64,000 bases of DNA from a virus (taxonomy: Duplodnaviria; Caudoviricetes): positions 20,736-84,735 of IMG/VR virus record IMGVR_UViG_3300020183_000042; one strand, given 5' to 3'. The position numbers were made by a program, and so were the translations under genes. Numbering within the stretch: the stretch's first letter is position 1; the number at the start of each line of letters is the position of its first letter. Shown here one piece after another: positions 26,763 to 63,642 of the stretch. The notes under the pieces were generated by a model, which had not been told where the DNA came from, did not search any database, and worked only from the letters and a program-made list of their open reading frames with translations.

Positions 26763-26818
26763 TTGTATTCTCCAAGGTTTCCTGTGATGCTCGTAGTATA
26801 CATCGTCATTCCGCGTTG

Positions 26819-27064
26819 TCAACCTTGATTTTTCTTTTGATTCACTCGTTGAATACTGATGTAACCAAAATAGATTGGTATTAATCCTATATACCATACT
26901 GGTAAGGCTAGAGAAGCAAACCAAAGTCCACTAACGATTGATAGTGCTGATAATATATAAACTATAAAAGATGGAAAATTTAACCTTGAGGTTAAGTATG
27001 CTAGCGGTCCAATCAAAATAGTTACTAAAACTATTAACGATGCTGCTAACGCTAAACTAGCCAT
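26819..27064 (-). CDS. Small membrane protein
   Basis: Hydrophobic, 2-3 TM segments. Confidence 0.6.
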   Translation of the reverse strand: MASLALAASLIVLVTILIGPLAYLTSRLNFPSFIVYILSALSIVSGLWFASLALPVWYIGLIPIYFGYISIQRVNQKKNQG

Positions 27065-27387
27065 TAGATTTCCTCATCGTCGTCTTGGTCTTTATAATCA
27101 TCTTTTGGAACCCATGTTTCATCAGTATCATCGATATTATAATTTTCTTCAAAATCTTCATCATCCTCTGCTAACAGAATAGTAAAATTATTGAGTATTT
27201 CTAGCATAACATCAACTTTGTGAGCAATATCTCTAACTTCTCGTTTGATTTCTATTATATCTTTAATTAGCTTGTCTTGATTTTTGCTTAGATCATCAAC
27301 ACCCCTAGATAAAGAGTCGTCTTTTTTATATAAGTCCTTATACGATTGCTCAATTTTTTTATAGATGTCGTCAATATCTCTAGACAT
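27064..27387 (-). CDS. Coiled-coil protein with acidic tail
   Basis: GGAG RBS; heptad pattern. Confidence 0.6.
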   Translation of the reverse strand: MSRDIDDIYKKIEQSYKDLYKKDDSLSRGVDDLSKNQDKLIKDIIEIKREVRDIAHKVDVMLEILNNFTILLAEDDEDFEENYNIDDTDETWVPKDDYKDQDDDEEI

Positions 27388-27396
27388 AACTACTCC

Positions 27397-27696
27397 TTAT
27401 TTGGGGTTGCGATATTCTCGTAAATCTCCATTTTCATTAATTTTCTGATCTTCATAGGATGATGCTAGTCGTCGATAGAATTCTTGCTTAATATTCTCTA
27501 ATACACCAGTTATCATAGCAATCTTCTTATATGAAACAGGTTTAATTAACTGGCCCAATACCCTGCTAAAACAATAGTTTATTCTACCAAGGTAGATGCT
27601 AAGATCGTTTGAGATTCTTTTATTACGAATAGCAATAACCATCACTGATATAGCATCGTCTAATTCTTTTCTTTCGTCTTCACTAATGTATGGCAT
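27397..27696 (-). CDS. Conserved phage protein (DUF6899-like)
   Basis: MPYI...R, G.INY, GVLE..K.EFYRR...YED.K..ENGD. Confidence 0.7.
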   Translation of the reverse strand: MPYISEDERKELDDAISVMVIAIRNKRISNDLSIYLGRINYCFSRVLGQLIKPVSYKKIAMITGVLENIKQEFYRRLASSYEDQKINENGDLREYRNPK

Positions 27697-28227
27697 TTAA
27701 TCCTCCTCGCATTTACATTCGTATCGTTTACAATAAGAACATTTTGGCCCAGGGTCGGGATTGCCCCAAGCATTTGATAATCCATCAAAACTTTCTTCAC
27801 CAGTATCTATACAGACCAATTTTTTGGTGCGTCCTCTTTTTACTAGTCCAACATTGTACCAATGACAATCCCAAAATTTCAATCCGGTCTTCTCATTGAT
27901 ATCATTAACGAGTTTTTGTATCTGCTTCATACTAATTTTTGTCGCGGCCCGATCAATGGTTGCTTTTTCTATAATATATCCCCAATCGCTTGGATCATCA
28001 AACACCATATCACCATCATCAGCAAATTTTAATCTACAAACTTTGCTATGAATTTTTGGTGCAAGATCGAACTTTTCTAGTTTTTTGTGATATGTATATG
28101 ACCGCGTAGCTTTCTTCTTATTCCTAAATTCCTTAAAGACTAAGCCACAATAACCAACTATAGGATAGACTTGACAATATCCTCCCTCATTACTCCAATC
28201 ACTATAATCTATTTGATAGTTAAGCAT
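27697..28227 (-). CDS. Protein kinase-like fold protein
   Basis: GGY..VY, VFK, DCH..NVG, CIDTG; likely start MLNYQ at 28227. Confidence 0.6.
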   Translation of the reverse strand: MLNYQIDYSDWSNEGGYCQVYPIVGYCGLVFKEFRNKKKATRSYTYHKKLEKFDLAPKIHSKVCRLKFADDGDMVFDDPSDWGYIIEKATIDRAATKISMKQIQKLVNDINEKTGLKFWDCHWYNVGLVKRGRTKKLVCIDTGEESFDGLSNAWGNPDPGPKCSYCKRYECKCEED

Positions 28228-28549
28228 TAGAGTTATTAATAATTTTGTTAGCCATAATTTCTTGAGCAATATTAATTGCCTCATTAAGATTTGTAGTTTC
28301 ACATAGTCTTATCGGCCCCTTTGGAATATCAATCCAGTAAGAACCATATACGCCATAAAAAACACCACCAAGAGAGTGGTCGTGCATTAGAAAATCAATT
28401 TTGTCGTGAAAAATATCAAAACACCATTCACCACTATCGTCTTGAGTTTCTTTTATTGTATCTACAATTAAAAATCTAAAATTAGGATGTTTAAAATCTT
28501 CATGACTATGAACTATACCACGATAAAATCTGTTTGGAATAGTAACCAT
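28220..28549 (-). CDS. Hypothetical protein
   Basis: Coupled ORF. Confidence 0.6.
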   Translation of the reverse strand: MVTIPNRFYRGIVHSHEDFKHPNFRFLIVDTIKETQDDSGEWCFDIFHDKIDFLMHDHSLGGVFYGVYGSYWIDIPKGPIRLCETTNLNEAINIAQEIMANKIINNSNA

Positions 28550-28550
28550 T

Positions 28551-28871
28551 TTATTTTCTAAATTTAGCGTAAAAATCCTTAAACTCTATTTTATTAGAAT
28601 ATAATGGAACACAAGTTGTTTCATCAGAGTAGGGATTATCTTGAGTTCGTAGATCATACAAATCTCCACGATCATTAGTTTTACCCCAAGCAACAGGATT
28701 GTCAAATATCTTTTTAAGACTAGATAATTCTTGTTCACAACTTAACCATCGTACATTATCTTCTTTTAGTTTTTTTAGTTCATCTTTTGCGTTGTTCACA
28801 ACGAACCGATCAGCACCATTTGCCCAGGCAAATTCGATAAGAAATTCGATAGGATCAGAATGTTGTTGCAT
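28551..28871 (-). CDS. Hypothetical protein
   Basis: Coupled ORF. Confidence 0.6.
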   Translation of the reverse strand: MQQHSDPIEFLIEFAWANGADRFVVNNAKDELKKLKEDNVRWLSCEQELSSLKKIFDNPVAWGKTNDRGDLYDLRTQDNPYSDETTCVPLYSNKIEFKDFYAKFRK

Positions 28872-28872
28872 T

Positions 28873-29094: not shown

Positions 29095-29127
29095 TTGTTT
29101 TCCTTTTAGTTAATAATTCCTAATTAA

Positions 29128-29200
29128 TAGGAGTGGTGGGAGTCGAACCCACACTGTACGGATTTTAAGTCCGTTGTCTCTGCCATTGGACTACACTCCC
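29128..29200 (-). tRNA. tRNA-Leu(TAA), short variable loop
   Basis: GGGAGTG/CACTCCT acceptor; ACGGA-CTTAAAA-TCCGT anticodon arm; GGTTCGACTCC. Confidence 0.92.
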
Positions 29201-29288
29201 AAATGATAATCGACTACAACAACTAAAGGTATGAGGTTGATTATTTGTGGGCCTCTCCCGTTTAAACTGTTGTAGCCGACTACCGTTT
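29201..29288 (-). ncRNA. Unclassified structured RNA, ~24-bp G-U-rich stem enclosing ~40 nt
   Basis: AAACGGTAGTCGGCTACAACAGTT pairs with AGTTGTTGTAGTCGATTATCATTT with one mismatch and several G-U pairs on the - strand. Confidence 0.55.
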
Positions 29289-29304: not shown

Positions 29305-29586
29305 TCAGCCGTTGTTGTGAGCCTTTAGACGACGCACAATCTCGGCCATAGCCTCAACATTATCAACCGTCTTAGTGGGCTTCGCACGCTCCATAGCGGG
29401 AAGATCAATACCCTTCTTAGCCAGAGCGGCCTTAGTACGAGCATAACGAGCCATCGTACTAGCAACCTTCTGACCAGTCTTGGTAGCAATCTCAGCATAA
29501 GTCTTGGACGAATAAACCGCCTCAAGAAAAGCCTCGTCGCTGCAACGAACACGGGTCTGCTTCTCAACATTAGTACCTTCAGCCAT
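29305..29586 (-). CDS. Small basic helical protein, possibly DNA-binding
   Basis: GGAGG RBS, own promoter, GC-richer codons than neighbours. Confidence 0.7.
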   Translation of the reverse strand: MAEGTNVEKQTRVRCSDEAFLEAVYSSKTYAEIATKTGQKVASTMARYARTKAALAKKGIDLPAMERAKPTKTVDNVEAMAEIVRRLKAHNNG

Positions 29587-30024
29587 AATAATCAACCTCC
29601 AAATTAATCCAACCTTACTTCGCGGTTCAGTCACGCGACCGAATCACCCGCGTTGTATCATCATTCTATCACGGGTTATCGGCTTGTCAACCCCTTCAAC
29701 TTGAATTTTTCAGTCAGCACCAACCAGTTCATTGTCTTTTTTGTCGCTAAAAAACGACAGAGCATCTGTTAAAATTTCATTATGAATTTCCAGATTATTA
29801 ATGATAGCATTGGCTTGTTCTAGTGCTTTGGTTAGATGATAAACTTTATTAGCAAGTTCATCGGCCACATAGTTTTTCATAATCATGGTAGCCTCCTTTA
29901 TTTAGGGACAGTATTAATTACACTTTTTCTTTTTCTTTTTAAATATTCTGTGCCAATTCTTATCCCATATTTTTTGGTCAATATTGCGTGGTCGTCTTTT
30001 ACTCCCTTTACTATTCTGGCTGAT

Positions 30025-31442: not shown

Positions 31443-32762
31443 TCATATTTGTCTATTAGAACCATGTAGGATTTTAAATGTAGGAAATCTTAGACTGATA
31501 CCACCATCTTGGTTTTCTGTTTCTTCAAAATATTGAACAGTAATTGTCTTACCAAGAATATGTTTCGGGTGCTTGTAAAAGTTTTGACGTTGTTCAATAC
31601 TAAAGCCACTACCAACACGCACAGTATGTCCCTTATGATTAATAGTTACACAAGAAAGCATGGTTTCTTCATGTTCTTTACCGTTTAATACATATCGAAA
31701 TGGTCCCATTTCTGTGTCGATAACTTCGTACTCATCATCAAAAAATTTCTTAACCTTGAGCAAATCTTTGCTACGCTTTCCCTTATATGGTTCATCTGCT
31801 CGCAACATTACTCCTTCCCATCCTTTATCAGCGGCTTCTTTTACCCACTCTTGGAAATGCTCATCATTATGAATCAATTCTTGTTCAAGCACAGTCAGGA
31901 TTGGATATGACTGGTAATATTGCATAGCACCACAAATATCAGCATATCGAATAGAATAAGGTCTATTACTCTTACCCTTCTTACTATAAAACTCATCAGT
32001 AGTTATCGCATCAAAAATCTTAAAAGACGGATTAGGAATAGTATGATCCTTCTTACGCAGTTCCTTCATCACTCCCTGGAAATCCTCATTACCATCTTCA
32101 TCTACCAGACAAAGTTCGCCGTCCAAAACAATACTATTAAGACCAATAGCCTTAATACCATCTGCAACTACTTCTAGAGTATCGAATACTTTTCCTGTTC
32201 TTGAAAGGAATGTAACTTCTCCAGCCTCATCAACAATAGCGATACATCTGGCCCCATCAATCTTACGAGAGACATACCATCCATCATTCCAATCAACAAG
32301 TTTAGGCTCATACTTTTCTGCTAGAGCAACACTAAACTCTGGAATCCAATCTGGAATAGCCTTGTTGATAATTTTATCGCCAGCACGGGTTTTCAAATCT
32401 TTATCAATAACACAATGAATAAGTTCCTCATAATCACTGTGATGTTCGATAAAACTATTGACCGCAGCAATAGCATCGTGACCAGTAATCTTGCGATTCT
32501 TTAGATCTTCAAGGAGATCAAAAAAATTATTGTATTCATTTTTACGAGCCACAAGATGACTCTTTTTCTTTAGATTATCGCTAGTAACATTATATTGCCA
32601 AAGAGGATGATAGGTATACAGCAGAATCTTCTTGGCAAAATTTGCAGAAGCATTATTAAAGATACCACAGTTTATTTTGATAATATCTTCTTTTTCTTTC
32701 GTACTGCTAGTTGCCCTAAGAGCATTAACCATATTCTGAACATAATTAAAATCGTGAGTCAT
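31443..32762 (-). CDS. lig: ATP-dependent DNA ligase
   Basis: KIDGAR, LDGEL, FDA, EGVML, KRS..LLKVK, VGSGFS, LRFPTF. Confidence 0.93.
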   Translation of the reverse strand: MTHDFNYVQNMVNALRATSSTKEKEDIIKINCGIFNNASANFAKKILLYTYHPLWQYNVTSDNLKKKSHLVARKNEYNNFFDLLEDLKNRKITGHDAIAAVNSFIEHHSDYEELIHCVIDKDLKTRAGDKIINKAIPDWIPEFSVALAEKYEPKLVDWNDGWYVSRKIDGARCIAIVDEAGEVTFLSRTGKVFDTLEVVADGIKAIGLNSIVLDGELCLVDEDGNEDFQGVMKELRKKDHTIPNPSFKIFDAITTDEFYSKKGKSNRPYSIRYADICGAMQYYQSYPILTVLEQELIHNDEHFQEWVKEAADKGWEGVMLRADEPYKGKRSKDLLKVKKFFDDEYEVIDTEMGPFRYVLNGKEHEETMLSCVTINHKGHTVRVGSGFSIEQRQNFYKHPKHILGKTITVQYFEETENQDGGISLRFPTFKILHGSNRQI

Positions 32763-32818
32763 CCAAATAGTCTCCTGTGTTGCTACCCATTCTACACTAC
32801 TGTTATCGGCTTGTCAAG

Positions 32819-33169
32819 TCACCGTTCTTGAATTTTTCTTTTTGAAAGAAGATAATTCATAGCGTTGGTTATTCCTTCTAAACTATCGTCGAATTTTCCT
32901 AATCCCGTGTTGCAGCGGTCACACAACCATCCTCTAAAAGTATCATCACTATGATCGTGATCCATTGTCCATTTACGAGGAATCTTTTTGCAACATTCAC
33001 AAACTTCTGGTTTTGGTGGAGCCTTTTTATGTAGTTTGTTTCTTATCTTGGTTTGCTTTTTAATACAACTTCTACATCTACTATCCAGATTATCTTTATG
33101 AGAAATATGTTTGGGAAAACTTTTTAAGTTCTTCCTTTTCTTGCAGTAAAGACAAATTTTTCTGGGCAT
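32819..33169 (-). CDS. Endonuclease VII domain protein
   Basis: CECC, DHDH...RGWLC.RCN.GLG. Confidence 0.85.
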   Translation of the reverse strand: MPRKICLYCKKRKNLKSFPKHISHKDNLDSRCRSCIKKQTKIRNKLHKKAPPKPEVCECCKKIPRKWTMDHDHSDDTFRGWLCDRCNTGLGKFDDSLEGITNAMNYLLSKRKIQER

Positions 33170-33873: not shown

Positions 33874-33883
33874 ATTATTTTAG

Positions 33884-34237
33884 TGGATGCGGCGGCATCG
33901 AAGCCGCGTCCTAGCATAAATCAAATTACATCTTCTACAAGTTTATTTTGTTCATGAGTTAAATAGGAATACAGAACAAACAAGATTCATCCTATCTTAC
34001 CAACTGCTCTTAACCTACAACCCGTTGGATATTGTAAGTGCAGAGGGATTTAACATCAGACTTTTGATCGCTACCCTCATTCGCAACCGCAGTCTGTTAC
34101 TGCCCTTTTTTGTCAGGCAGCAAGTGCTAACTGATTATTGCCAGTTAAAGCATTTAGTAGACTTTTATAGTGGCCTGTCTACCAACCACTACTTGCTAAC
34201 ATAACTCTCCGTATGTAGTCGAAACCTTTACGCACCC
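33884..34237 (-). ncRNA. ssrA: tmRNA; tag (A)GNNQLALAA* at 34142..34113
   Basis: GGGTGCG/CGCATCC-A acceptor with G3-U70; 5' GGTTTCGAC; T arm GCGGC-TTCGAT-GCCGC; 354 nt; ALAA-ending tag. Confidence 0.92.
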
Positions 34238-34349: not shown

Positions 34350-34859
34350 ATGAATCATTGTGTCAATTGTTCAAAAGAAACAAATAATCCTAAATTTTGT
34401 TGTAGATCATGCGGAGTATCGCATAATAATCGACTACAGCCTAAAAGGATGGCTAAAAAAAGATATTTCAAATGTTTGTGTTGTAAAAAACAAACCGAGT
34501 TTTATACTAATAATCCTAGAAAATATTGTTCAAAAAAATGTCAAATCAAACATAAAAGAGAAAAATCAGATAATATTATAGAAAAACAAGGCTTCGGTAA
34601 TGGTTACTACCACAATGTAAGAATTAGAAAATACTTTATACGCAAGTATGGTAACAATTGTATGATCTGTGGGCAGTCTGGAGATAACTGGAATGGAAAA
34701 CCTATAACTCTTATTGTGGATCACATAGATGGGAAATCTAATAATAATAAATTAGATAACCTGCGTATTGTTTGTCCTAACTGTGATTGTCAATTACCAA
34801 CGTACAAAGCCAAAAATAAAGGTAATAGCACCAGACAATATTTTATAGTTCAGAAATAG
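34350..34859 (+). CDS. HNH homing-type endonuclease with N-terminal Zn-ribbon repeats
   Basis: KFCCRSC, KYCS..C, C.ICG, VDHIDG...NN...NLR..CPNC; inserted opposite-strand between tmRNA and tRNA-Ile. Confidence 0.85.
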   Translation: MNHCVNCSKETNNPKFCCRSCGVSHNNRLQPKRMAKKRYFKCLCCKKQTEFYTNNPRKYCSKKCQIKHKREKSDNIIEKQGFGNGYYHNVRIRKYFIRKYGNNCMICGQSGDNWNGKPITLIVDHIDGKSNNNKLDNLRIVCPNCDCQLPTYKAKNKGNSTRQYFIVQK

Positions 34860-34929
34860 GGCCGGGTAGAATCGAACCACCTTGACGAATTTATAAGATT
34901 CGCATCTTAGACCATTAGATGACGGCCCC
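34857..34929 (-). tRNA. tRNA-Ile(TAT)
   Basis: GGGGCCG/CGGCCCT; CGAAT-CTTATAA-ATTCG; GGTTCGATTC. Confidence 0.88.
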
Positions 34930-34984
34930 ATATTGTAAAAGATCAACCACCGACCAATACATTATACACTATCGACCACCACTG

Positions 34985-53204: not shown

Positions 53205-53207
53205 AAA

Positions 53208-53452: not shown

Positions 53453-53487
53453 GAGACTACATATAATACTCATCACGCCAGTGCTTG

Positions 53488-54019: not shown

Positions 54020-54021
54020 AT

Positions 54022-54064: not shown

Positions 54065-54084
54065 ATTATAGCATATTGTTATAC

Positions 54085-54649: not shown

Positions 54650-55057
54650 TCATGTTCTTTCCTCCAAAACGTAAACTTGTTTGCCTTGTGTAATCAGAGA
54701 GTCATATTGTGAATCGTCCCATGCGAACTCTCCACAATCACTTTCTCGTCGCCAGTAAACATCGCGGATTGGATTGTAATACAACTTCTCTAGATTGTCA
54801 ACACCAATCTCATTATTTATGATAACCGTATCACACTTTACCCAACCAGCCACATCCTTCACACCAGCCTCATGAACTTTCTTAGCCTTATTCACTTTAT
54901 TTACCAGTTTGCAACTCAACATCTCTAACTGATAAAGAGCCGGATCATAATAAAACTCTTGCAGTTTCTTTCTACCACACATGGCCTTGACTTGCCAGTG
55001 CATATAGTTTGGCCCACGAGCCAGATGAAATCGTACTTCGTAGTGTGTTCGTGTCAT
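54650..55057 (-). CDS. Hypothetical protein, leaderless
   Basis: RFHLARG.N..HWQV motif; ATG 6 nt after TATACT -10. Confidence 0.7.
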   Translation of the reverse strand: MTRTHYEVRFHLARGPNYMHWQVKAMCGRKKLQEFYYDPALYQLEMLSCKLVNKVNKAKKVHEAGVKDVAGWVKCDTVIINNEIGVDNLEKLYYNPIRDVYWRRESDCGEFAWDDSQYDSLITQGKQVYVLEERT

Positions 55058-55149
55058 GCGACTAGTATACCTTATTGGTTATTGGTTGTCAAGACTATAC
55101 ACTTTCGCTGACTATCGCCAAGACCGCAAATCCGTAGGATTAGGAAAAA

Positions 55150-55227
55150 CAATGTCGGCTTCCGCCATACTCGACCAGCATTTCAGATAGCCTCTTTTGA
55201 TATCATTGTGGCTATCTCCGTACATTG
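55150..55227 (-). ncRNA. Candidate multi-stem small RNA
   Basis: CAATGT/ACATTG closing stem; AGATAGCC/GGCTATCT; GGC-GGAA-GCC; own promoter; 45-bp element abuts 3' end. Confidence 0.5.
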
Positions 55228-55336
55228 TTCGTTCTAAGTATACCCTATAGATCGGCATTATCAATAGGATTCTTTAGTGCCATTTTGGCAGATCGGCCGC
55301 GGCTCCTGCCGTTTTGGCAGGAGTTATTCTATTCCA

Positions 55337-55585
55337 TTATTTTCCCCTCCCAATAATCAAACACGGAGTACCAACCTTCTCATCCGTAAACTTCACACAC
55401 GCATGAGGCCCATAATACCAAGCATTATTCTGTGAGAAATCGAATACAATCTCTTCGATCTTCAACCCCACATCATTATACCCACCCTCATACAGACCCG
55501 ATGGCCAAGAAATCCCACCAAGAGTAAGAACCCGCATATCGCCCGGATAGTTCTTCAACTGCTCAATAAGTTCAGAAACGGTCAT
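55337..55585 (-). CDS. Hypothetical protein (MTV.ELIE.L..YP.D..V...GYEGG family)
   Basis: Common phage N-terminal motif. Confidence 0.65.
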   Translation of the reverse strand: MTVSELIEQLKNYPGDMRVLTLGGISWPSGLYEGGYNDVGLKIEEIVFDFSQNNAWYYGPHACVKFTDEKVGTPCLIIGRGK

Positions 55586-55625
55586 TTTACAGTCTCTTTC
55601 TGCTGTTTCTGCCACTCTAATACCA

Positions 55626-55760
55626 TTACCGATACTTGAGACGTATCATAACATCGCGAGCAGACCAGAGAATATCCCAAAATCGCTCATCACGATACAT
55701 CTTCCAATCTTCCTCAGTAATCATACCTTTCATGTACCATCTAAACATCTTCTCGTACAT
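55626..55760 (-). CDS. 44-aa hypothetical protein
   Basis: Hand-translated; AAAGGA RBS. Confidence 0.5.
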   Translation of the reverse strand: MYEKMFRWYMKGMITEEDWKMYRDERFWDILWSARDVMIRLKYR

Positions 55761-55789
55761 TGTTTTTCCTTTCTATATACTTGTGTTGA

Positions 55790-55898
55790 TCGTGGTGGGG
55801 ACGCTATCCCCCATAGACTAGTATCGGTTCCCAGAGCATAACCGGCTCATTCGTCCCCGATAGGTTATCTAATCTAGTCCCGAGCCATGGACCCACGA
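55790..55898 (-). ncRNA. Candidate pseudoknotted structured RNA
   Basis: TCGTGG/CCACGA, GACTAG/CTAGTC, TATCGG/CCGATA, GAGC/GCTC; loop GGTTAT complementary to bulge ATAACC; 3' hairpin TGGGG..CCCCA. Confidence 0.55.
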
Positions 55899-55906
55899 AA
55901 GTTTTT

Positions 55907-55988
55907 GTGATGGTTGTCTCTCTACCCTAAAGGCGAGGGTTGGTTTTACCCGACAACTAGGTTGTGGCCTCCACTTTGCCAGCACCAC
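55907..55988 (-). ncRNA. Candidate structured RNA
   Basis: GTGGTG/CATCAC, TGGC/GCCA, GTTGTC/GACAAC, ACCCT/AGGGT; begins ~20 nt after a promoter -10. Confidence 0.5.
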
Positions 55989-56118
55989 TTTGTTTTGTCT
56001 TACTCAATCATTCTACACTCTAGTATCGGCTTGTCAACAGCAAGAATCCAAGAAAAATGTTGTGCCATTTTGGCAGTTGTCGCGGCCCATCTGCCGTTTT
56101 GGCAGCGTGGGTTTTGTT

Positions 56119-56583
56119 TTATGTTTCTACTTCATCAGTAAAAAACTCGTCAAGGTTGTAATCTTCCCACACTCTAACAGGAATCACACCCTTATCATTT
56201 CCATATTCCGTACACAGATCATCACCATCATGCCAAATACCACAATAGCCGATTCCAGGCTCAAAATAACTAGCATCAACCATAAACCCCAACCTATCCA
56301 ACTCCTCATACAATCCAATGGGAGGACTCCAAGCACTATCAAAACTCATGGTAGCCTCATTATCCACAATCGTAGGATGTAGTCCGTGAACTTCACCATT
56401 ATCACTACCAATATCCCACTTGGTTCCCCAGTTTTTGATATTCCAGTTGTACCAATCTTCACCCTCTGGCATCGGCAAATAATGTTCACAAGCCTTACCC
56501 TCCTTGAAGGCATGAACAAACTCCATAACCTTAGACCGATCCTCATGGCTAATCTTCAACTTGTTCAAGCACCAGTTAGGCAT
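56119..56583 (-). CDS. DUF1281/YubB ferredoxin-like domain protein
   Basis: MPNWC.N, WYNW...NWGTKWD, F.SAWSPP, Y.EPG..YCG. Confidence 0.8.
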   Translation of the reverse strand: MPNWCLNKLKISHEDRSKVMEFVHAFKEGKACEHYLPMPEGEDWYNWNIKNWGTKWDIGSDNGEVHGLHPTIVDNEATMSFDSAWSPPIGLYEELDRLGFMVDASYFEPGIGYCGIWHDGDDLCTEYGNDKGVIPVRVWEDYNLDEFFTDEVET

Positions 56584-56627
56584 AACTTTCTCCTTTGGTT
56601 CGATTCTACACTAGTCGTTATCGGTTG

Positions 56628-57103
56628 TCAAGCGGCCAAAACTTTACCAAACATCTTTTTTCCCACACGCAAATCTCTGTGGCTATATTTAGAACCAACA
56701 TATTTAGCAACAGTTCTAGTATCCATAACCCTAGCGGTCAAACCCTCTGGGCTAACAAACACCATAACCAGTTTGTGAAAGTTATTGGGGCAAATATGCT
56801 GAAACTTATAAGTATACTTGATTGTTCCACCAACAATGGTCATTCTGGCCAGACTAGACTTGACCTCTACCTTGCGACCATTCACAAGCATATCAAAAGA
56901 GTGACTACCACCAATATAAGAAACAGTGTGACCAGCATCCTTATAATAATCCCTAATCATACGTTCAATCGCACCACCCCTTACTGACTACTCATCCTAG
57001 ACAGTCTATAGGCCAACATATTCTTTTTCGGGCAAAAAATACTTTTCTTGTGGAATCCACGAACTTCGCACAAAACCTTATTCAAATGAGTTGTAGTAAA
57101 CAT
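56628..57103 (-). pseudogene. PD-(D/E)XK nuclease-like gene with a frameshift near 56983
   Basis: AAAGGAG-ATG at 57103 runs 40 codons to TAA; another frame carries RGGAIE...FDMLVNGRKVEVKSS. Confidence 0.6.
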
Positions 57104-57208
57104 AGTGATCTCCTTTGGGCGTATTCTAATACTAAATATCGTCTTGTCAACAGATAAAACTTTATTGCCATTTTGGCAGTCGGGGCGCCCGGTCTGCCGT
57201 TTTGGCAG

Positions 57209-57454
57209 TTATTCATCCTCTTCGAATAGTTCGGGCTGTGATGCCAAGATAACATCCTCTGTGCGAATAACAGTAGTAGTAGGTGTAGCAGTTAGATAAT
57301 CTCTCATACCACATTCATCAACATAAAAATATTCATCGATAACATCATTCTTATTACAACCCATAAGAGTTCTAACAGCCGCCTCCAAAGGATCGCAGCA
57401 ACTAGTAATAAGTTCAGCAGTATTACTCTTTACATAAAACTTAGGCATGATCAA
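57209..57454 (-). CDS. Hypothetical protein
   Basis: GGGAG RBS; coupled. Confidence 0.6.
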   Translation of the reverse strand: MIMPKFYVKSNTAELITSCCDPLEAAVRTLMGCNKNDVIDEYFYVDECGMRDYLTATPTTTVIRTEDVILASQPELFEEDE

Positions 57455-57711
57455 CTCCCTAGACTAATCAAAACAAAACCATCATCATTATAACACTCGT
57501 CATAATCTAATGTGTCATTGACAATCTCGGCATCATAAAGAATAGTATCTAAATCTCGATTGGTCATAAGAGTATCATAGTTAGTACCAAAACTGATATC
57601 ACTATCACAAACTGCCTGAATAACCCTATCGTAGTCTAAATCGTTATGCTTACACACGTCTTTGAGCATCAAATAAGTATAACTATAACTTCTCATTATT
57701 TTGTCTTTCAA
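57451..57711 (-). CDS. Hypothetical acidic protein
   Basis: Coupled ORF. Confidence 0.55.
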   Translation of the reverse strand: MKDKIMRSYSYTYLMLKDVCKHNDLDYDRVIQAVCDSDISFGTNYDTLMTNRDLDTILYDAEIVNDTLDYDECYNDDGFVLISLGS

Positions 57712-58412
57712 TGGGCGGGAAACAAAACATTAGCCAGACCACGCACACACAAGTCACATGATATACTATCCTTCGTGCCAGTGCAAGTGATTGTTGCTCG
57801 ACCACGACGGATTTCCGGGCAGACCACAAACTTGGTCGCGTTCAGTACCACCAACTTCGGCAGACTAGCCCTCCAAGCATCAGCCTTTTTCTTGCTACGG
57901 GGACGTTTCGGTGCAATCTTTTCGTCGCTATCACACCACGCGAACAACTTGAATCCTTGTGCTAGAGCCTCGCCCATATCGTTATCGTCGTGAACACTAG
58001 CATACACGGCCATATACTTGTCGAGACTAACAAGCCGACTATCATAAATATGGGTATAAAACCACATATCGGGCAGACTATCACCATCAGCAAGAATACT
58101 CTCACACGCCCATGTCACATTAGCAACATATTCTACGTCAAGTTCGCCGTTGAGAAACCAGTCACCCCGCTCGTGCCAACGGATACTCTTTTCACGACGC
58201 TTCGCATCCAGAATCATAGCACGGATTTTGTTTTTCTCTGTGACTATGTTAGCAAACCCCGCGGTACGGGCGTTTTTATACTGATTCTCGGTAGCCTCGG
58301 CATAGCAGCCGTTGCCGAGATAGTCACAATCGGGCGGACAAGTATCGCCAACGGGACGCGACACCACAACGCAACCCTTGCCCAACTTATCATTTCCGTC
58401 TGCGGTTTTCAT
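57708..58412 (-). CDS. Gp88-like Cys-rich protein (radical-SAM-related fold suspected)
   Basis: N.KLG, TCP..C.....CYA, IRWH..GD, W.YT, CP...C..C.LC, F..H; start MKTAD at 58412. Confidence 0.7.
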   Translation of the reverse strand: MKTADGNDKLGKGCVVVSRPVGDTCPPDCDYLGNGCYAEATENQYKNARTAGFANIVTEKNKIRAMILDAKRREKSIRWHERGDWFLNGELDVEYVANVTWACESILADGDSLPDMWFYTHIYDSRLVSLDKYMAVYASVHDDNDMGEALAQGFKLFAWCDSDEKIAPKRPRSKKKADAWRASLPKLVVLNATKFVVCPEIRRGRATITCTGTKDSISCDLCVRGLANVLFPAH

Positions 58413-58601
58413 ATTTGTTTCTCCGTGTCTCTCGATTCTACAGTGTGGTATCGGCTTGTCAACACACAAACTTGAGCATAAAAAAAGATTTTGTTTGGCA
58501 CAAGGTTTGCTCGTTGCCATTTTGGCAGGGCGGCCGGCCGAGCTGCCATTTTGGCTGACTATCGCCACGACTGCCAAATCCGTAGGATTAGGAAAAACAA
58601 A

Positions 58602-58674
58602 TAGCCCCACGGAGGATCGAACTCCGATCTCCGGGATGAAAGCCCGGTATACTAAACCATTATACTATGGGGCC
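58602..58674 (-). tRNA. tRNA-Glu(TTC)
   Basis: GGCCCCA/TGGGGCT; CCGGG-CTTTCAT-CCCGG; AGTTCGATCCT. Confidence 0.88.
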
Positions 58675-58823
58675 GACACTCGCTCTACCCAAACATTATC
58701 ACCGTGTTTTTTTTGAGCAAGTAGATAAGCGTTCATTTGAGAAAGAGACACAACATATCCAACAAAGCGATTATTCTTGAAAACTCTCCAAATATAACCA
58801 CTATAGCAAAACGCGGTATTCAT
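58665..58823 (-). CDS. 52-aa leaderless ORF whose stop lies inside tRNA-Glu
   Basis: ATG 6 nt after TAGAAT; hand-translated MNTAFCYSGYIWRVFKNNRFVGYV... Confidence 0.55.
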   Translation of the reverse strand: MNTAFCYSGYIWRVFKNNRFVGYVVSLSQMNAYLLAQKKHGDNVWVERVSAP

Positions 58824-58927
58824 ACGGTTATTCTAACAGTTAGTATCGGCTTGTCAAGAGGCAAAACTTTAGTGTCATTTTGGCAGTTTTCGCGGCCGGC
58901 CTGCCAAGATGGCAGAGCCAGAACCCC

Positions 58928-59332
58928 TCAAAAGAGGAGGCTGGCCAAGCCGGTCTTGAAAGCCACCCCACCCAGGAGGGGCCGACGCACGTTAGTGGTA
59001 CGCTCCGCATAGAAGTTGCGAATCTTACCATCGGGCGTTTGAGCAGTCACCAAATGCTGGCTACGCTGAAACGTCGGATCATCCCTACGATAGCGACTCT
59101 TACGATTGAGTCGAGCAAGATAATCCGCGGAAAACTCGTGAACCTCAAGCACCTTTGCCATGAACCGCTCACGATCACCCGTGACCGGCTGCACATACTC
59201 AAAGTTATACACACCACCAACCTTAGCGTTGGTCAGACTATCGTGAAGACCAGAAAAAAGATGAAAGCACACAAAAGCCACAACACCAGCAACCAACCCA
59301 CAACCAATCGCAACCATAGTCATCGTATCCAT
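58928..59332 (-). CDS. Membrane-anchored protein, WYL-like beta domain
   Basis: N-terminal TM; F.Y......R.....V; G.IRNFY..R. Confidence 0.6.
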   Translation of the reverse strand: MDTMTMVAIGCGLVAGVVAFVCFHLFSGLHDSLTNAKVGGVYNFEYVQPVTGDRERFMAKVLEVHEFSADYLARLNRKSRYRRDDPTFQRSQHLVTAQTPDGKIRNFYAERTTNVRRPLLGGVAFKTGLASLLF

Positions 59333-59575
59333 AGTATTAGCCTTTCGTTGTTATATCCCAAACTCAATAAAACTAGTATACCACACTTATCGGCGTTTGT
59401 CAAGCGTCAACTTCACAAAGTTTAGTTGTCAAACGAAGAAAATATTTTTGCCATTTTGGCAGATCGGGCGCCCAGGCTGCCATTTTGTCTAACTACAGCC
59501 ACCCTAGCAAATCCGGGAGGATTAGGAAGAACAAGCCCGCCGCATCAATCCCTACTCTTTGGGGGTCGGCGTTTG

Positions 59576-59926
59576 TCAAGCGTCAACTTCAACATTTTCC
59601 AAAAGATGCTCCGCGATTTCTAGCCAGTTAGTTACAGAAAGAGCAGCACCAAGCAAGTCTGCCCATACACTCGCGGTCAACTTTGTTTGTTCAAGTATTT
59701 CGTCCTTGGCTTCTTCGTAATAATCCCTCAGCCTATCAGCCATTAGATACACGGCCTCGTCCATGCGTGACATACCGATATCGGTATTGTCGCGTGTGTG
59801 GTTGTGGTATACATCTTCCGCAACTTCTCGCCAGTAATCGTGGGTACCTTCTTCGTTGTCCATCCACAGATTCACAACCCACGTTTCGTAGTTAGTCCAG
59901 CCGTTGTAGTTCTTGTCGTTGTCCAT
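59576..59926 (-). CDS. Conserved phage protein (YNGW.NYETW family)
   Basis: YNGWTNYETW...LW.DN, NW.EIA; AAGGAG RBS. Confidence 0.75.
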   Translation of the reverse strand: MDNDKNYNGWTNYETWVVNLWMDNEEGTHDYWREVAEDVYHNHTRDNTDIGMSRMDEAVYLMADRLRDYYEEAKDEILEQTKLTASVWADLLGAALSVTNWLEIAEHLLENVEVDA

Positions 59927-59990
59927 TCTTTCTTTCTCCTTGGTATCCCTCAAGTCTACTCTATATATCGGTTTGTCAACCCCCGAAACT

Positions 59991-60248
59991 TTACTTTTGC
60001 AAGTATTCGATTTCCTGGCCGTTAGCGATCATGGAAGCATACAGTTCGATGCGACGATCCTTTTCCCGCTTTTCGATTTGATGATCCGTTTCGATTCTTT
60101 CGCGTCGGTCACACTTAGCATCCAATGCGGCCAGCGTCACACTATCGGTGCGATTATCGCGGAAGTCCTCGGGCAGCCAACTATTCGGCACCACAATACA
60201 ATCTTTGATAATCCGCTGAAACTCCGCCATCAGTTCGTAGCCGTTCAT
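59991..60248 (-). CDS. Hypothetical protein (similar to 62742..63116)
   Basis: GGAGG RBS before MNGYE; FQR.I and R...(Y/L)A motifs shared. Confidence 0.6.
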   Translation of the reverse strand: MNGYELMAEFQRIIKDCIVVPNSWLPEDFRDNRTDSVTLAALDAKCDRRERIETDHQIEKREKDRRIELYASMIANGQEIEYLQK

Positions 60249-60562
60249 GGTTTCCTCCGTTGTTGTGTGGATTATACAGATGGAAAAGTGGATGTCAACT
60301 CGAAAAAAAGCAGTAGCAAATACTGTGCCAAAGTGGCAGATCGGGCGCGCCACCCGCCATTGTGGCAGATGGTCTTTTTTAGATTAGGGATAGAAAGTAG
60401 GTCATAACAATAAAACCAGCCAGAAATCCCACAATATTTTCAATCATTATTTTCCCTCATTGGAAAAACCAAATCAGAAACAAACCAACTACTAACAATG
60501 CCAGCAACAAATCCCACACCTACTAGTACCCAGTTGATATCGACCATCCTTGGCCCCTTTCT

Positions 60563-60772
60563 TTATTTTTTATATCCAACCCAGAAAACTTCGCCCCGAT
60601 CATTAGTCATTTCCACAGGATTATCCAGAAAATCCCTACGAATCCTCAGATGCTCCCTGCGTCGTTTCCATCCGATGATACTATCACAAATGGCCCCACA
60701 AATCAATAGTAAAAACTCCACAAGGCCCACAGCCATTATTGGAAAAGCGATGAATAGTACAATATATTTCAT
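60563..60772 (-). CDS. Small membrane protein
   Basis: ATGA coupling; TM segment. Confidence 0.55.
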   Translation of the reverse strand: MKYIVLFIAFPIMAVGLVEFLLLICGAICDSIIGWKRRREHLRIRRDFLDNPVEMTNDRGEVFWVGYKK

Positions 60773-61080
60773 CCCTGCACCACCATATTTTCCATAAAAG
60801 GATATTCCTTGCCGTTGATTCTCACAAACCATTCGTATTTTCGCTGGTACACTCTCACCGGGCTATACTGGTTTATTCTATCCTTGGTTGTGGCCGTTTG
60901 CCATCCCCCCGTTTGCAGGGTATAGGTATTGTCAGGATGAATCTTCACCACATAGGTGTTGTGGAGCAAAATGCCCACGCTGCCGTCACTCAGAATCTCA
61001 GCGTAGGTGTTGTTGCCGATCTTCCGGCTATCCTTGTTCTGCTTGCCCCGAACCATATTGACCGCTTCGGTGTGAGTCAT
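60769..61080 (-). CDS. Conserved phage protein
   Basis: K..NNTY, LH.T.V, GGW.T.TTK.RIN. Confidence 0.7.
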   Translation of the reverse strand: MTHTEAVNMVRGKQNKDSRKIGNNTYAEILSDGSVGILLHNTYVVKIHPDNTYTLQTGGWQTATTKDRINQYSPVRVYQRKYEWFVRINGKEYPFMENMVVQG

Positions 61081-61220
61081 TTCAACGCTCCGTATAGTTA
61101 GTGAGTTCATTTTTTCCTCTTTCCTTTATATCGGTATTCTACAGCCCAAACTTTACTTGTCAAGCACTTTTCGCTGACTACAGCCACACCAGCCAAACCC
61201 GGAGGGTTAGGTGAGACAGT

Positions 61221-61373
61221 CTACTCCTTCCAGTTGTCGTTGTATTCGGGATCGGTAGGGTCGGGATAGTATTCAAGGATTGGGGTACAATGCTCAAGGC
61301 AGCAAGCACAGAAATCGTAGCCTTGAACCTTGTCGCCGCAGCAATCGGAAACTATCACTTCAATCATTCTCAT
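61221..61373 (-). CDS. 50-aa Cys-rich protein (SDCCG...C..C.EHC)
   Basis: Hand-translated; paralog of 63187..63381. Confidence 0.6.
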   Translation of the reverse strand: MRMIEVIVSDCCGDKVQGYDFCACCLEHCTPILEYYPDPTDPEYNDNWKE

Positions 61374-61556
61374 GGTCAACTTCCTTTCTTCTATCTTTAT
61401 ATCGGTATTCTACAGCGTAAACTTGAGATTGCAAGCGAAATTTTCAAATATAATTTCATGCCAAATAAAAAATATTTTTGTGGCACGATATTTGCTATGT
61501 CTGTCAATATGGCAGATCGGGCGGCCGCGCTGCCATTTTGGCAGTCGCGGTTTTGC

Positions 61557-61775
61557 TCAATAATCGTTATCCTCCCCGAAATAGCCGTAGTCCTCGTCGG
61601 TTCCCCAACCCGCCGACTCCATCGCACTATCATGGTCGCCATCCGTGCTGTCGTCGTAGAAATCGTCGTAGTCGTCGTAGTTAGGATCGTCGTTGTCGTG
61701 CGATTCGTCGTCGATCCACGGCCAAATCGTACGCTCCGCCATATCATCAAATCGGTCACAAGAATCATCGCTCAT
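61557..61775 (-). CDS. 72-aa highly acidic protein
   Basis: GAGGAG RBS; SAG.GTDEDYG motif; 28/72 D+E. Confidence 0.7.
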   Translation of the reverse strand: MSDDSCDRFDDMAERTIWPWIDDESHDNDDPNYDDYDDFYDDSTDGDHDSAMESAGWGTDEDYGYFGEDNDY

Positions 61776-61802
61776 CGTATTCTCCTCATCGGGTGAGTCA
61801 TC

Positions 61803-62015
61803 TCAAAAAACATCCCAAACAACGCTGTGCTCATCGACCATCGGCTCAGGATACAACTCATCCCACAGCCCCGCGACTTCCGCATAATCAAACGGACAGC
61901 AATCGGGCTCGTCAATCGGCTCGACCATACGCTCATCGACCAGTTCCGCGAGGATAGCGTTCACCGTGTCGGTATCTTCAAGCAAACCCATCATTCGAGG
62001 AAAGTGATTCATCAT
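61803..62015 (-). CDS. Acidic hypothetical protein
   Basis: AGGAG RBS; promoter upstream. Confidence 0.65.
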   Translation of the reverse strand: MMNHFPRMMGLLEDTDTVNAILAELVDERMVEPIDEPDCCPFDYAEVAGLWDELYPEPMVDEHSVVWDVF

Positions 62016-62203
62016 CGTTTCTCCTGGGGTGTACTACCGTTATACAGTCTATATCGGTGTTTGCAAGCGGAAAAAATAGTGGAAAAAAAGTTTTTTGCGG
62101 CACAACATTTGCTGATGCTGCCATTTTGGCAGTTCGGGCGCGATTTCTGCCATTTTGGCTAGCTGTCGCCATTTTCGCCAGCCGATAGGATCGGATGAGA
62201 CAG

Positions 62204-62419
62204 TCAACTTACTCCCATCCATGAGGCGTTTTCTACACAATAATCATAAAACATATCGTTCAACATATCACGATAGTTACTATCGGTCAACCGGCGACGA
62301 TCCATCGTAAACTCACACTCAGCATAGATTCTACCGTCCGGAGTTGCAAGGAAAGAAATCTGGTAACTCTCGCTTCCCCAGATCTGACGAATCGCATCCC
62401 GAATCTTATTCGTTTCCAT
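62204..62419 (-). CDS. Hypothetical protein
   Basis: AGGAGG RBS; promoter upstream. Confidence 0.65.
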   Translation of the reverse strand: METNKIRDAIRQIWGSESYQISFLATPDGRIYAECEFTMDRRRLTDSNYRDMLNDMFYDYCVENASWMGVS

Positions 62420-62741
62420 CTTCTATTTCCTCCTGCTAGGTATATCGGTATCCTACATTCGGTCTCTTGAATGTCAAATAGAAAAAATCGCTCAAAAAAA
62501 AGATTTTGTTTGGCACAAGATTTGCTCTGCCTGCCATTTTGGCAGTTTTCGCGGCCTGCCTGCCATTTTGGCAGCTTTTTGACTGGCTGACTGTCATTAT
62601 TGTCAGCCGATAGGATCGGCTAGGACAAACGGGGGGAGTATCCCCTATAAGGTGCCATTTTGGCAGATCGGGCGCGCCGCCTGCCATTTTGGCAGAGACC
62701 CCTCATTGGTGGGGGAGCGGCACCATACCCCTAGTGGGGGG

Positions 62742-63116
62742 TTATTCCCCATCCCACCCAAAGGGGGAGACTTCCTCTCCGCTGGCGAGAATCGCACCAT
62801 ACTGTTCGGCCAGAGCCTTTTTTCGCTCATCGGAACCGGGCTTTCCAACCTTGATAATCATCGTATCATCACCCCCCTTGTAGCGGGGGTCAACCCTCTC
62901 GACCTTACGCTTGCCCATGCGACGCAACGCCTTGCGATTGAACTTGAGAACCTTTTCGGTCATCACCTTACGCTGTCGATCACCGACACCATAAACATAG
63001 TCTACGCCGTCGATCACCCGATCATCGGGCACGTCGATAGCGTCGGGAATAGCGATTCCATCGAACCAGTTGATGATAGCACGCTGAAAATCACGCAGAA
63101 TCGGACTAGTTGCCAT
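62742..63116 (-). CDS. Hypothetical protein
   Basis: GGAG RBS before MATSP; GKPGS.ER..AL..QY motif. Confidence 0.65.
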   Translation of the reverse strand: MATSPILRDFQRAIINWFDGIAIPDAIDVPDDRVIDGVDYVYGVGDRQRKVMTEKVLKFNRKALRRMGKRKVERVDPRYKGGDDTMIIKVGKPGSDERKKALAEQYGAILASGEEVSPFGWDGE

Positions 63117-63186
63117 GATGCTTTGCTCCAAAGGATTATTGACTGTACCAAAAAACTTTTTTGACCACAACCCCCACCATGGGGGA

Positions 63187-63381
63187 CTACCATCCATTCT
63201 GCCGACAAGTCTCATCCCACGAGTCCTGTTCACGACGCTGGGAGCGGGTCATCGGCTCGTCGCCAAGGCACCACTCATCGCGGGCCGCATCGTACCCGTC
63301 GTCCGAAACATCACAATGCTCGCCACAACGCGAGCAAATATCCTGAAACCGAACCACAGCACCACAGCAATCACTTAGCAT
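63187..63381 (-). CDS. Cys-rich small protein (SDCCG...C..C.EHC)
   Basis: GGAG RBS before MLSDCC; promoter upstream. Confidence 0.65.
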   Translation of the reverse strand: MLSDCCGAVVRFQDICSRCGEHCDVSDDGYDAARDEWCLGDEPMTRSQRREQDSWDETCRQNGW

Positions 63382-63642
63382 TTTCAGTCTCCGTTTCTTT
63401 CTTTCTTTCTTTCTATATCGGATTATACGGTCTGAAACTTGAAAAGCAAACCGAAAAAAATCGGGAGAGAAAAATATTTTGTGGCACAGTATTTGCTGGC
63501 GCGATTTTGGCACAAGATTTGCTAGCCTGCCATTTTGGCAGTTCGCGCGGCCGATCTGCCATTTTGGCAGTCTGGCTGACTGTCATTATGGCAGCCAGCC
63601 GATAGGATCGGCTAGAACACCCCCCTAGAGGGGTAGAGCCCC

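Follow-up and report, generated by a model that had tools for sequence, protein, structure and literature searches.

In a large, uncultured lake phage, the early and middle genes carry, on or close to many of their sigma-70-type promoters, a second two-box element, T(A/C)AAG-N16/17-CCGATA(A/T/C), which resembles the promoters of the sigma-28 (FliA) family and may be read by a sigma-28-type holoenzyme of the host. The stretch analysed here (the window, 64,000 nucleotides) comprises genome bases 20,736-84,735 of the 84,735-bp viral contig IMGVR_UViG_3300020183_000042, and positions refer to the window unless they are called genome positions. The window represents the early and middle part of the phage, and its open reading frames (ORFs) are nearly all on the minus strand. 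The element is found on this minus (gene) strand, co-oriented with the promoters, and results of our analysis indicate that it is real, strand-specific, and limited to the early/middle region.

The two-box element and the sigma-70 promoters

The exact pattern T[AC]AAG-Nx-CCGATA occurs 16 times on the gene strand between 29.6 and 63.4 kb, six times with a spacer of 16 bases (N16) and ten times with a spacer of 17 (N17). On the same strand, copies with other spacings are absent throughout N5-N24 and occur once each at N25 and N26, and the opposite strand has no exact copy at N16/17. In 300 dinucleotide-preserving shuffles of the region, the mean was 0.03 copies and the maximum 2. This enrichment at fixed spacing over shuffled controls (16 vs. 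0.03) agrees with an earlier, sequence-only reading of this DNA, which had proposed that two overlapping sigma-factor specificities are encoded here. The heptamer GCCGATA is present in 23 copies in the window, as compared to a shuffle mean of 3.95 and a maximum of 10. With one mismatch allowed, 11 extra gene-strand copies appear at ~24-64 kb vs. one on the opposite strand, and eight of the 11 are located at recognisable promoters. The 16 exact copies together with these eight promoter-linked near-copies make "about 20" promoters, as counted in the sequence-only reading, a fair description.

The genes of the phage start from near-consensus sigma-70 promoters of the form TTGACA-N16/17-TAnAAT, often with a TG extension, the housekeeping consensus being TTGACA-N16-18-TAnnnT (PMC12276001). 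With sigma-70-like sites defined as those of at most two mismatches to the consensus, the gene strand contains 49 in the genome, 35 of them in 26,795-63,450. The exact element is carried by 11 of these 35 and a one-mismatch element by seven, and 17 have no element; the reverse-complement control for this pairing gave 0 exact and 0 one-mismatch cases. Five exact elements are without a sigma-70-like site at this threshold. The statement that nearly every transcription unit start bears both signals was thus too strong (18 of 35). The coordinates quoted along with it are all correct, namely those of elements with CCGATA inside the sigma-70 spacer (52042-52016 and 58871-58844), of elements with CCGATA past the -10 hexamer (61155-61129, 61426-61400, 62470-62443, and 63442-63416), and of two elements without TTGACA between the boxes (53897-53870 and 48690-48663).

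Our comparison set consisted of this genome (G000) and nine related phage records, each of which has 6 to 68 ORFs in common with it, at a mean identity of 50-64%. The element is present in all nine relatives, on one strand: five of them have 33 forward, 2 reverse, and 1 control match, and the four further ones have 23 forward, 0 reverse, and 0 control matches. Scanning the ten genomes at N13-N20 gave 80 gene-strand occurrences, 23 with N16, 49 with N17, and 8 with N13-15 and N18-20 together. The pooled set comprises 71 non-redundant sites (N17 in 48, N16 in 23). The exact string TTGACAAGCCGATA has at least 129 matches in the viral contig collection, distributed over 126 stretches, and about 50 of these matches have the full layout with a correctly spaced T[AC]AAG and a -10 hexamer.

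The position of the element relative to the sigma-70 boxes differs between sites. As measured from CCGATA, the best nearby sigma-70-like -10 hexamer is located at +12 to +16 in 47 sites, at -7/-6 in 10, and at +8/9 in 2; the remaining offsets are +28 (1 site), +35/36 (3), and +53/54 (3), and 5 sites have no partner. In the main arrangement, register A, T(A/C)AAG precedes TTGACA by 8-9 bp, and the start of the sigma-70 spacer is occupied by CCGATA. In register B, represented by 10 of the 71 sites, CCGATA is placed one base past the -10 hexamer. Since the spacing of the element itself is fixed (N16/17 in 72 of 80 occurrences) while the sigma-70 register varies, the two boxes form a unit that is independent, by sequence, of the sigma-70 boxes, as the sequence-only reading had maintained.

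Positions between and beside the boxes carry at most 0.5 bit in the ten genomes, with the exception of the base directly before each box (0.8-0.9 bit). At orthologous sites in the relatives, the boxes are kept and the spacers differ, as in the case of 48663-48690 compared to G004 and of 62443-62470 compared to G004 and G005. The unconserved flanking and intervening sequences and the diverged orthologous spacers argue that the sites are not recent copies of one cassette. These sequence patterns indicate that selection maintains the element as a whole and that it is no mere side effect of cassette copying. It is co-directional with genes (72 forward vs. 2 reverse in the ten genomes), and a ribosome-binding site (RBS) with a start codon follows within 200 nt downstream of 54 of the 71 sites, the nearest RBS starting 7 nt past the box.

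Candidate readers of the element

The sigma-28 consensus of E. coli, TAAAGTTT-n11-GCCGATAA, is equivalent to TAAAG-N15-CCGATA (PMC2859248), and the fliC promoter of P. aeruginosa, with TCTAAAG at -36/-30 and GCCGATAA at -15/-8, has the same form, TAAAG-N15-CCGATA (PMC12784957). In the ten genomes, the -35 box TAAAG(TTT) of this consensus is represented by 43 TAAAG and 29 TCAAG at N16/17 (searched as T[AC]AAG), and the bases after the box are T-rich where TTGACA does not overlap them (T in 55% and 64%). The hexamer CCGATA was itself fixed by the search pattern; the base preceding it is G in 66% of sites and the next base is A in 56%, as in the -10 box GCCGATAA, and outside the main register the base after it is T in 59% of sites. 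The co-directional placement upstream of genes is that of a sigma-28-type promoter. The canonical spacing, TAAAGTTT-n11-GCCGATAA, is not that of the phage, in which N15 occurs in 1 and N16/17 in 72 of the 80 occurrences. Both the match to the consensus and a spacing 1-2 nt longer than in E. coli had been recognised in the sequence-only reading. Besides FliA, the sigma-28 family includes SigD and WhiG.

Sites with a longer spacing are found in bacteria. The attack-phase promoters of Bdellovibrio bacteriovorus contain TTAAG-N16-CCGATA in 92 of 140 cases mapped by their transcription start sites and have been assigned to FliA (PMC3627812), so that a FliA using a longer spacing exists. Our search of 201 Planctomycetota genomes for TAAAG-N12..20-GCCGATAA gave 223 matches, of which the 150 listed were counted by hand: total lengths of 25, 26, 27, 28, 29, 30, 31, 32, and 33 were represented by 13, 15, 21, 30, 25, 14, 8, 6, and 18 matches, respectively. 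The corresponding numbers for 151 Pseudomonadota genomes (150 listed of 198 matches) were 12, 17, 41, 12, 10, 31, 6, 5, and 16. In both phyla, the multiples of 3 are presumably inflated by coding sequence. When these are discounted, the listed matches peak at 28-29, that is, at the N16/17 of the phage, in Planctomycetota, and at the canonical 27 in Pseudomonadota; the other planctomycete lengths that are not multiples of 3 (25, 26, 31, and 32) have 6-15 matches each among the 150 listed.

Twenty of the planctomycete sites were fetched, 13 with N16 and 7 with N17. Of the 13 N16 sites, four directly precede flagellar genes, those of FlgM, FliD (two sites), and flagellin; a comparison with host flagellar promoters, with Planctomycetota as the example, had been suggested in the sequence-only reading. 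In five planctomycete genomes, which are a biased sample picked for having matches, TMAAG-N13..19-CCGATAW occurs 113 times (N13 8, N14 3, N15 12, N16 46, N17 26, N18 9, N19 9), and both TAAAG and TCAAG are used.

The reading that we favour, giving it about an even chance, is that the two-box element is a sigma-28 (FliA)-type promoter read by a sigma-28-type holoenzyme of the host. The double promoter would then provide two overlapping landing sites for the host core polymerase, and the same genes could be started by either holoenzyme. In register A, the sigma-28-type start would lie ~12 nt upstream of the sigma-70 start, and in register B ~9 nt downstream of it; at the other sites, the two promoters would act in tandem. 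Either holoenzyme would produce nearly the same message. The whole cascade would proceed from host sigma-70 to a sigma factor encoded by the phage and to the late motif GGTGTAT(A/T), both described below; with the phage sigma assigned to the late motif, the two-box element would be left to a host factor. We infer the promoter function, host sigma-28 as the reader, and the action of the phage sigma at GGTGTAT(A/T). It is plausible that the phage profits from a sigma factor abundant in swimming cells or from an escape from sigma-70 competition. The explanation by motile and sessile host states offered in the sequence-only reading is speculation.

Several observations weigh against host sigma-28 as the reader. 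The canonical N15 is present in none of the 71 non-redundant sites; most of these have N17 (48 of 71), and N16 is the main spacing of the bacterial precedents. None of the 7 planctomycete N17 sites precedes a classic flagellar gene, one of them being located before a PseB-like gene, and the counts for both phyla comprise 150 listed matches each, made by hand and marked by the 3-base periodicity of coding sequence. A spacing of N16/17 is typical of two-domain, extracytoplasmic function (ECF)-type sigma factors too. In register B, the RBS starts 7-13 nt past CCGATA. Transcription initiated ~9 nt past CCGATA would begin at the RBS or immediately before it, and the sigma-28-type message would be almost leaderless. 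The public sequencing runs listed as containing window 52001-62000 include no RNA run, all 24 being DNA metagenomes of lake or freshwater origin. Finally, a phage sigma gene is present in all five genomes of the clade that contain the relevant block (G000, G002, G003, G370, and G372), so that their co-occurrence is compatible with the phage sigma as the reader.

This gene, locus L002 (genome 18830-19489, minus strand, ~1.2-1.9 kb left of the window start), encodes a sigma-70-family protein of 219 aa. We consider it unlikely, if deserving of attention, that this protein reads the two-box element; it would then bring about an early-to-middle switch on the double promoters and keep the genes running after host sigma-70 is displaced. 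The presence of the gene in 5 of 5 block-bearing genomes is in favour of this possibility, and so are the difference of the 16/17 spacing from the canonical sigma-28 spacing and the well-conserved sigma4 domain (Sigma70_r4, 45-56 bits), which suggests the use of a -35 box, a component that the two-box element has and the late motif does not. The supply of the sigma gene would also fit, as in 5 of 5 genomes it has its own sigma-70-type promoter and no two-box element. This promoter, TTGACA-N17-TAAAAT, is conserved inside the ORF preceding the sigma gene in 4 of the 5 genomes, with the surrounding synonymous positions variable, and is intergenic in G370. Records G369 and G371 contain 3 and 10 elements, respectively, and no sigma gene; the entire block around this gene is missing from both, and G371 has no replication genes. 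They are probably incomplete, and the missing block makes them unable to decide whether the phage sigma reads the element.

The features of the protein itself point elsewhere. While it scores 45 bits with Sigma70_r4 and passes the generic superfamily model TIGR02937 (50.7 bits, cut-off 42.9), its score with the FliA_WhiG model TIGR02479 is 26.3 bits, below the cut-off of 189.6. A profile search of the PDB gave a YlxM-like UPF0122 helix-turn-helix protein as the top match; the best sigma-factor matches were regions 3-4 of RpoS, RpoD, and SigA, and WhiG was matched only with E = 0.002. In the AlphaFold model (5 orthologues; mean pLDDT 67.7), a sigma2 domain at residues 26-113 is followed by a low-confidence linker and a sigma4 domain at 154-218. 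Helices are predicted at 26-113 and 143-218, and the pLDDT of residues 110-152 is below 50, which leaves no room for a folded sigma3 and hence for a three-domain build. The phage sigma is not FliA-like and, with the moderate confidence of the model, two-domain, yet both boxes of the element closely match the sigma-28 consensus. The alternative in the sequence-only reading of a sigma28-like factor of the phage's own was right in that a phage sigma gene exists, but the 26 bits vs. the FliA/WhiG cut-off of 190, the lack of sigma3, and the better match of the protein to the late motif speak against the sigma28-like part of it. The orthologues of this protein in G002, G003, G370, and G372 (44-52% identity) are in each case the only sigma factor detected in the genome. 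Searches for the anti-sigma-28 factor FlgM and for the actinophage marker WhiB, in five genomes each, gave no match.

The late motif, G-GTGTAT-A/T, precedes the start codons of structural genes by 25-80 nt. It is represented by 59 non-redundant sites in G000 (genome ~16,323) and the nine relatives, among them 3 in G369 and 4 in G371, with 0-3 matches per genome for scrambled controls. It is often located directly behind terminator-like hairpins and has no conserved -35 region. The late structural genes are preceded by neither sigma-70-like promoters nor the two-box element. They need a dedicated factor, and the phage sigma is the only one found in the complete relatives. A sigma factor of this kind has a precedent in gp36 of phage phiEco32, which reads a single -10-like sequence, AATGTA, centred at -11.5 (PMC12276001). 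The two-box element, moreover, is present on the earliest genes, whose transcription precedes the synthesis of any phage sigma. From the sequence features and by analogy to gp36, it appears more likely that the phage sigma acts at the late motif GGTGTAT(A/T) than at the two-box element. The adjacency of its gene to that of the head protease made us consider that a virion-packaged sigma acts on early promoters at the next infection; no support for this was found.

Quite unlikely, in our estimate, is that the two boxes are not a promoter at all and represent the binding site of a phage or host DNA-binding regulator which tunes or shuts off sigma-70 promoters. Such a role would suit the location of 66 of the 71 sites on a sigma-70 promoter or at most ~55 bp upstream of it, and in two registers the element overlaps the -35 or the -10/+1 region, so that a protein bound to it would obstruct polymerase. 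Protein-site-like TGCCAAAATGGCA pairs beside the same promoters in this phage and three relatives point to a densely regulated region. However, an asymmetric site with two different half-sites 16-17 bp apart has the geometry of a sigma-factor target and not that of a typical dimeric regulator, and both halves match the sigma-28 consensus (PMC2859248). No one mode of activation or of repression would account for its positions, which range from an overlap with +1 to ~55 bp in front of the -10 hexamer, and the consistent orientation with the genes (72 forward, 2 reverse) speaks against a regulator site as well. Hardly credible is that the element has no function of its own, being a hitchhiker on recently copied promoter cassettes or a chance pattern: many copies do have the string TTGACAAGCCGATA in common, but there are 16 of them vs. 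0.03 in shuffles, the sequence between and around the boxes is unconserved, orthologous sites keep the boxes and differ in the spacers, and the boxes move relative to TTGACA.

Individual elements, neighbouring features, and host clues

The exact and the promoter-linked one-mismatch copies of the element in the window are listed in Table 1. The copy at 44579-44605 may be an internal promoter for the genes downstream.

Table 1. Copies of the two-box element in the window, with their sigma-70-like partners and downstream genes
Element	Position	Strand	Context
TCAAG-N16-CCGATA	63416-63442	-	CCGATA right after TATAAT of a weak sigma-70-like promoter (-35 TTTGCT)
TCAAG-N17-CCGATA	62443-62470	-	register B: TTGACA 2 nt upstream of TCAAG; CCGATA 1 nt past TAGGAT
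TCAAG-N16-CCGATA	61400-61426	-	register B: TTGCAA ... TAGAAT-A-CCGATA
TAAAGTTT-N13-CCGATAT	61129-61155	-	register B: TTGACA-AG-TAAAG ... TAGAAT-A-CCGATA; upstream of ORF 60769-61110
TAAAG-N17-CCGATA	59966-59993	-	TTGACA within spacer; upstream of ORF 59576-59953
TAAAG-N17-CCGATA	58844-58871	-	register A: TTGACA-AG-CCGATA-N8-TAGAAT
TCAAG-N16-CCGATA	58449-58475	-	register A
TAAAG-N17-CCGATA	56619-56646	-	register A; upstream of ORF 56119-56583
TAAAGTTT-N14-CCGATAA	53870-53897	-	no TTGACA between boxes; weak sigma-70-like promoter ~53 nt downstream
TCAAG-N16-CCGATA	52016-52042	-	register A; upstream of DUF932 gene (51014-52024 as called)
TAAAG-N17-CCGATA	48663-48690	-	stand-alone; separate TTGACA-N16-TATACT promoter begins 7 nt downstream; orthologous site in G004
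TAAAG-N16-CCGATA	44579-44605	-	within ORF 44236-45291; no sigma-70-like partner
TCAAG-N17-CCGATA	40013-40040	-	register A; upstream of UvdE gene 39076-40056
TAAAG-N17-CCGATA	37121-37148	-	register A; upstream of ORF 36656-37078
TCAAG-N17-CCGATA	32804-32831	-	register A; upstream of DNA ligase gene 31443-32762
TCAAG-N17-CCGATA	29677-29704	-	register A; upstream of ORF 29305-29634
TGAAG-N17-CCGATA (one mismatch)	59388-59415	-	on TTGACA-N17-TATACT promoter
TAAAG-N17-ACGATA (one mismatch)	57137-57164	-	on TTGACA-N16-TAGAAT promoter
TAAAG-N16-CCGATC (one mismatch)	55250-55276	-	on TTGATA-N16-TATACT promoter
TCATG-N17-CCGATA (one mismatch)	54479-54506	-	on TTGACA-N16-TAGAAT promoter
TGAAG-N16-CCGATA (one mismatch)	53026-53052	-	on TTGACA-N16-TATAGT promoter
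ACAAG-N16-CCGATA (one mismatch)	49944-49970	-	TATAAT comes next
TAAAG-N17-CCGATG (one mismatch)	46572-46599	-	on TTGACA-N16-TATACT promoter
TAAAG-N16-ACGATA (one mismatch)	37794-37820	-	on TTGACA-N16-TATAAT promoter

Certain other repeated sequences accompany the promoters. The leader behind the outermost promoter (63,390-63,415, minus strand) contains a short tandem AGAA run ending in ...ACGGAGA directly before the start codon. Boxes of the form TGCCAAAATG(G/A)CA, at 50,934-63,593 on the minus strand, are located directly upstream of many promoters, often abutting TAAAG, and are usually paired, 29 bp from start to start, with a G+C-rich spacer; 18 exact copies are on the gene strand and none on the other. 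They are common to three of the nine relatives (16 in G004, 15 in G005, and 13 in G372) and essentially absent in the other six, apart from one reverse-strand copy in G002. By their sequence, they look like predicted sites of a dimeric regulator and would partly account for the high G+C content of 50-64 kb. The possibility that TGCCAAAATGGCA boxes are sigma-54 sites was rejected, as the GG-to-GC distances are 9-10 instead of 12. A hairpin repeat, AGCCGAT-(2-3 nt)-ATCGGCT, is present in three copies between the earliest transcription units (62,180-62,200, 62,605-62,625, and 63,597-63,617, in plus-strand reading). Behind each of these hairpins, on the gene strand, there are the TGCCA...GGCA boxes and a conserved AGCAAAT-N-TTGTGCCA stretch.

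The contig is classified as linear, with an estimated completeness of 61%. Family scans of the window identified rIIA and rIIB (23235-26924), DNA ligase, endonuclease VII, UvdE, ThyX, a SpoU methylase, and a clamp loader. Genes located left of the window encode ribonucleotide reductase, PhoH, dCMP deaminase, a tail-fibre-like protein, the head protease, and the sigma factor. The G+C content is 26-38% across most of the window and climbs to 42-51% in 50-64 kb. A run of sugar-nucleotide and polysaccharide genes at 619-16143 (minus strand), comprising those of a glycosyltransferase, a dehydrogenase, an aminotransferase, epimerases, a heptose-isomerase-like protein, and a phosphatase, has a G+C content of just 26-31%, and a related cluster is present in G002. 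The complete relative G002 also contains, in its structural module, an ORF of ~5,990 codons (99,161-117,121), whose homologue in G371 is 57% identical over the aligned part. A tmRNA gene (33,881-34,237, minus strand; Rfam, 103 bits) encodes the tag peptide GNNQLALAA and is preceded by a TTGACT-N16-TATAAT promoter at ~34,273. Ten tRNA genes are located at 29,127-29,201, 34,856-34,930, 52,928-53,452, 53,947-54,020, and 58,602-58,674; six of them are clustered at 52.9-53.5 kb, the one at 52,928-52,998 being detected by Rfam alone.

Searches for cultured relatives yielded only tRNA matches (blastn, 7.9 kb query), only distant matches of at most 37.5% identity (tblastn with rIIA vs. cultured phages), no match (tblastn with the phage sigma vs. 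cultured phages), and a single chance match (blastn with one promoter). A 141-kb contig of G006 (loci L163 and L169), which contains several such double promoters, has been assigned to a metagenome-assembled genome (MAG) labelled as a species-representative "bacterium", the nearest relatives of which have genomes of just 0.5-1.0 Mb. It is probably a mis-binned phage contig of the clade.

The spacing and the box variants of the element may fingerprint the sigma-28 of the host itself. It is a tentative possibility that the clade infects bacteria whose FliA reads T(A/C)AAG-N16/17-CCGATA; in such a case, Planctomycetota may be the best host candidates on the evidence of the promoter sequences, and predatory Bdellovibrio-like bacteria another. 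A comparison of 20 kb of the window with 401 Planctomycetota genomes gave, among the 150 matches listed, only those of the tRNA cluster (78-92% identity), and this likeness to planctomycete tRNAs is not informative as host evidence. Similarly, the tag GNNQLALAA, likened to the planctomycete tags ADNQLAMAA and GENDLAMAA, is no host evidence, short ...ALAA tags being widespread. A 19-base composite pattern had 8 matches in species-representative bacterial genomes, about the chance level, and gave no host information; 3 or 4 of these matches resemble phage contigs binned into MAGs of unrelated labels.

Significance and comparison with known promoter systems

According to the general view, transcription from phage early promoters depends on the housekeeping sigma factor of the host, and phage factors take over at later stages. 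The large uncultured lake phages studied here appear, as an entire clade, to have a second promoter, for an alternative sigma factor, built into the same early promoters. If host sigma-28 reads the element, phage expression would be tied to the motility or developmental state of the host, and the element would provide a host clue from sequence only. If the fingerprint reading is true as well, sigma-28 would run the whole free-swimming programme in such hosts, the phage could start in swimming as well as in growing cells, and the hosts of uncultured phages could be assigned from promoter grammar, which would bring to light a phage group hitherto unseen. Full-text searches, judged by their listings, found no description of phage promoters read by sigma-28, and we know of no paper on N16/N17 sigma-28-type sites in Planctomycetota. 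The promoter type is a textbook one; that it is systematically nested in the early promoters of a widespread phage clade appears, as far as searched, not to have been published.

The middle promoters of phage T4, in which a MotA box is combined with a sigma-70 -10 box and sigma appropriation, resemble the double promoters in that both have a phage-specific extra box on promoters of sigma-70 type, and in both the extra box changes, or here would change, which form of polymerase can use the promoter. In T4, the MotA box replaces the -35 box at a fixed position, whereas the element of the lake phages consists of two separate boxes, and its position relative to the two sigma-70 boxes varies. Phage phiEco32 gp36 is a likely model for the own sigma of this clade and its late motif, which has no -35 (PMC12276001). 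The likeness concerns the late promoters and not the two-box element, and no sequence relationship to gp36 was found, the tblastn search of cultured phages being without a match.

In the case of class 3 flagellar promoters, which are read by FliA in E. coli, Salmonella, and P. aeruginosa, the -35 and -10 boxes, their order and orientation, and the location upstream of genes are the same as in the phage (PMC2859248, PMC12784957). The phage spacer is 1-2 bp longer (N16/17 vs. N15), the genes served are early and middle phage genes and not flagellar ones, and the boxes are interleaved with a consensus sigma-70 promoter. The FliA regulon of Bdellovibrio shares with the phage both CCGATA and the N16 spacing, and there the use of sigma-28 reaches far past flagellar genes (PMC3627812). 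The phage -35 box differs from that of Bdellovibrio in being TAAAG or TCAAG, with TTAAG found just 5 times at N16/17 in the ten genomes; N17 is commoner in the phages, and their promoters are double. The planctomycete N16/N17 sites have in common with the phage both the alternation of TAAAG and TCAAG and the N16/17 spacing, although N16 dominates in the bacteria (46 vs. 26) and N17 in the phages (48 vs. 23). Judged by these likenesses, the spacing and the box variants of the phage element are nothing unusual for at least some bacterial sigma-28 regulons.

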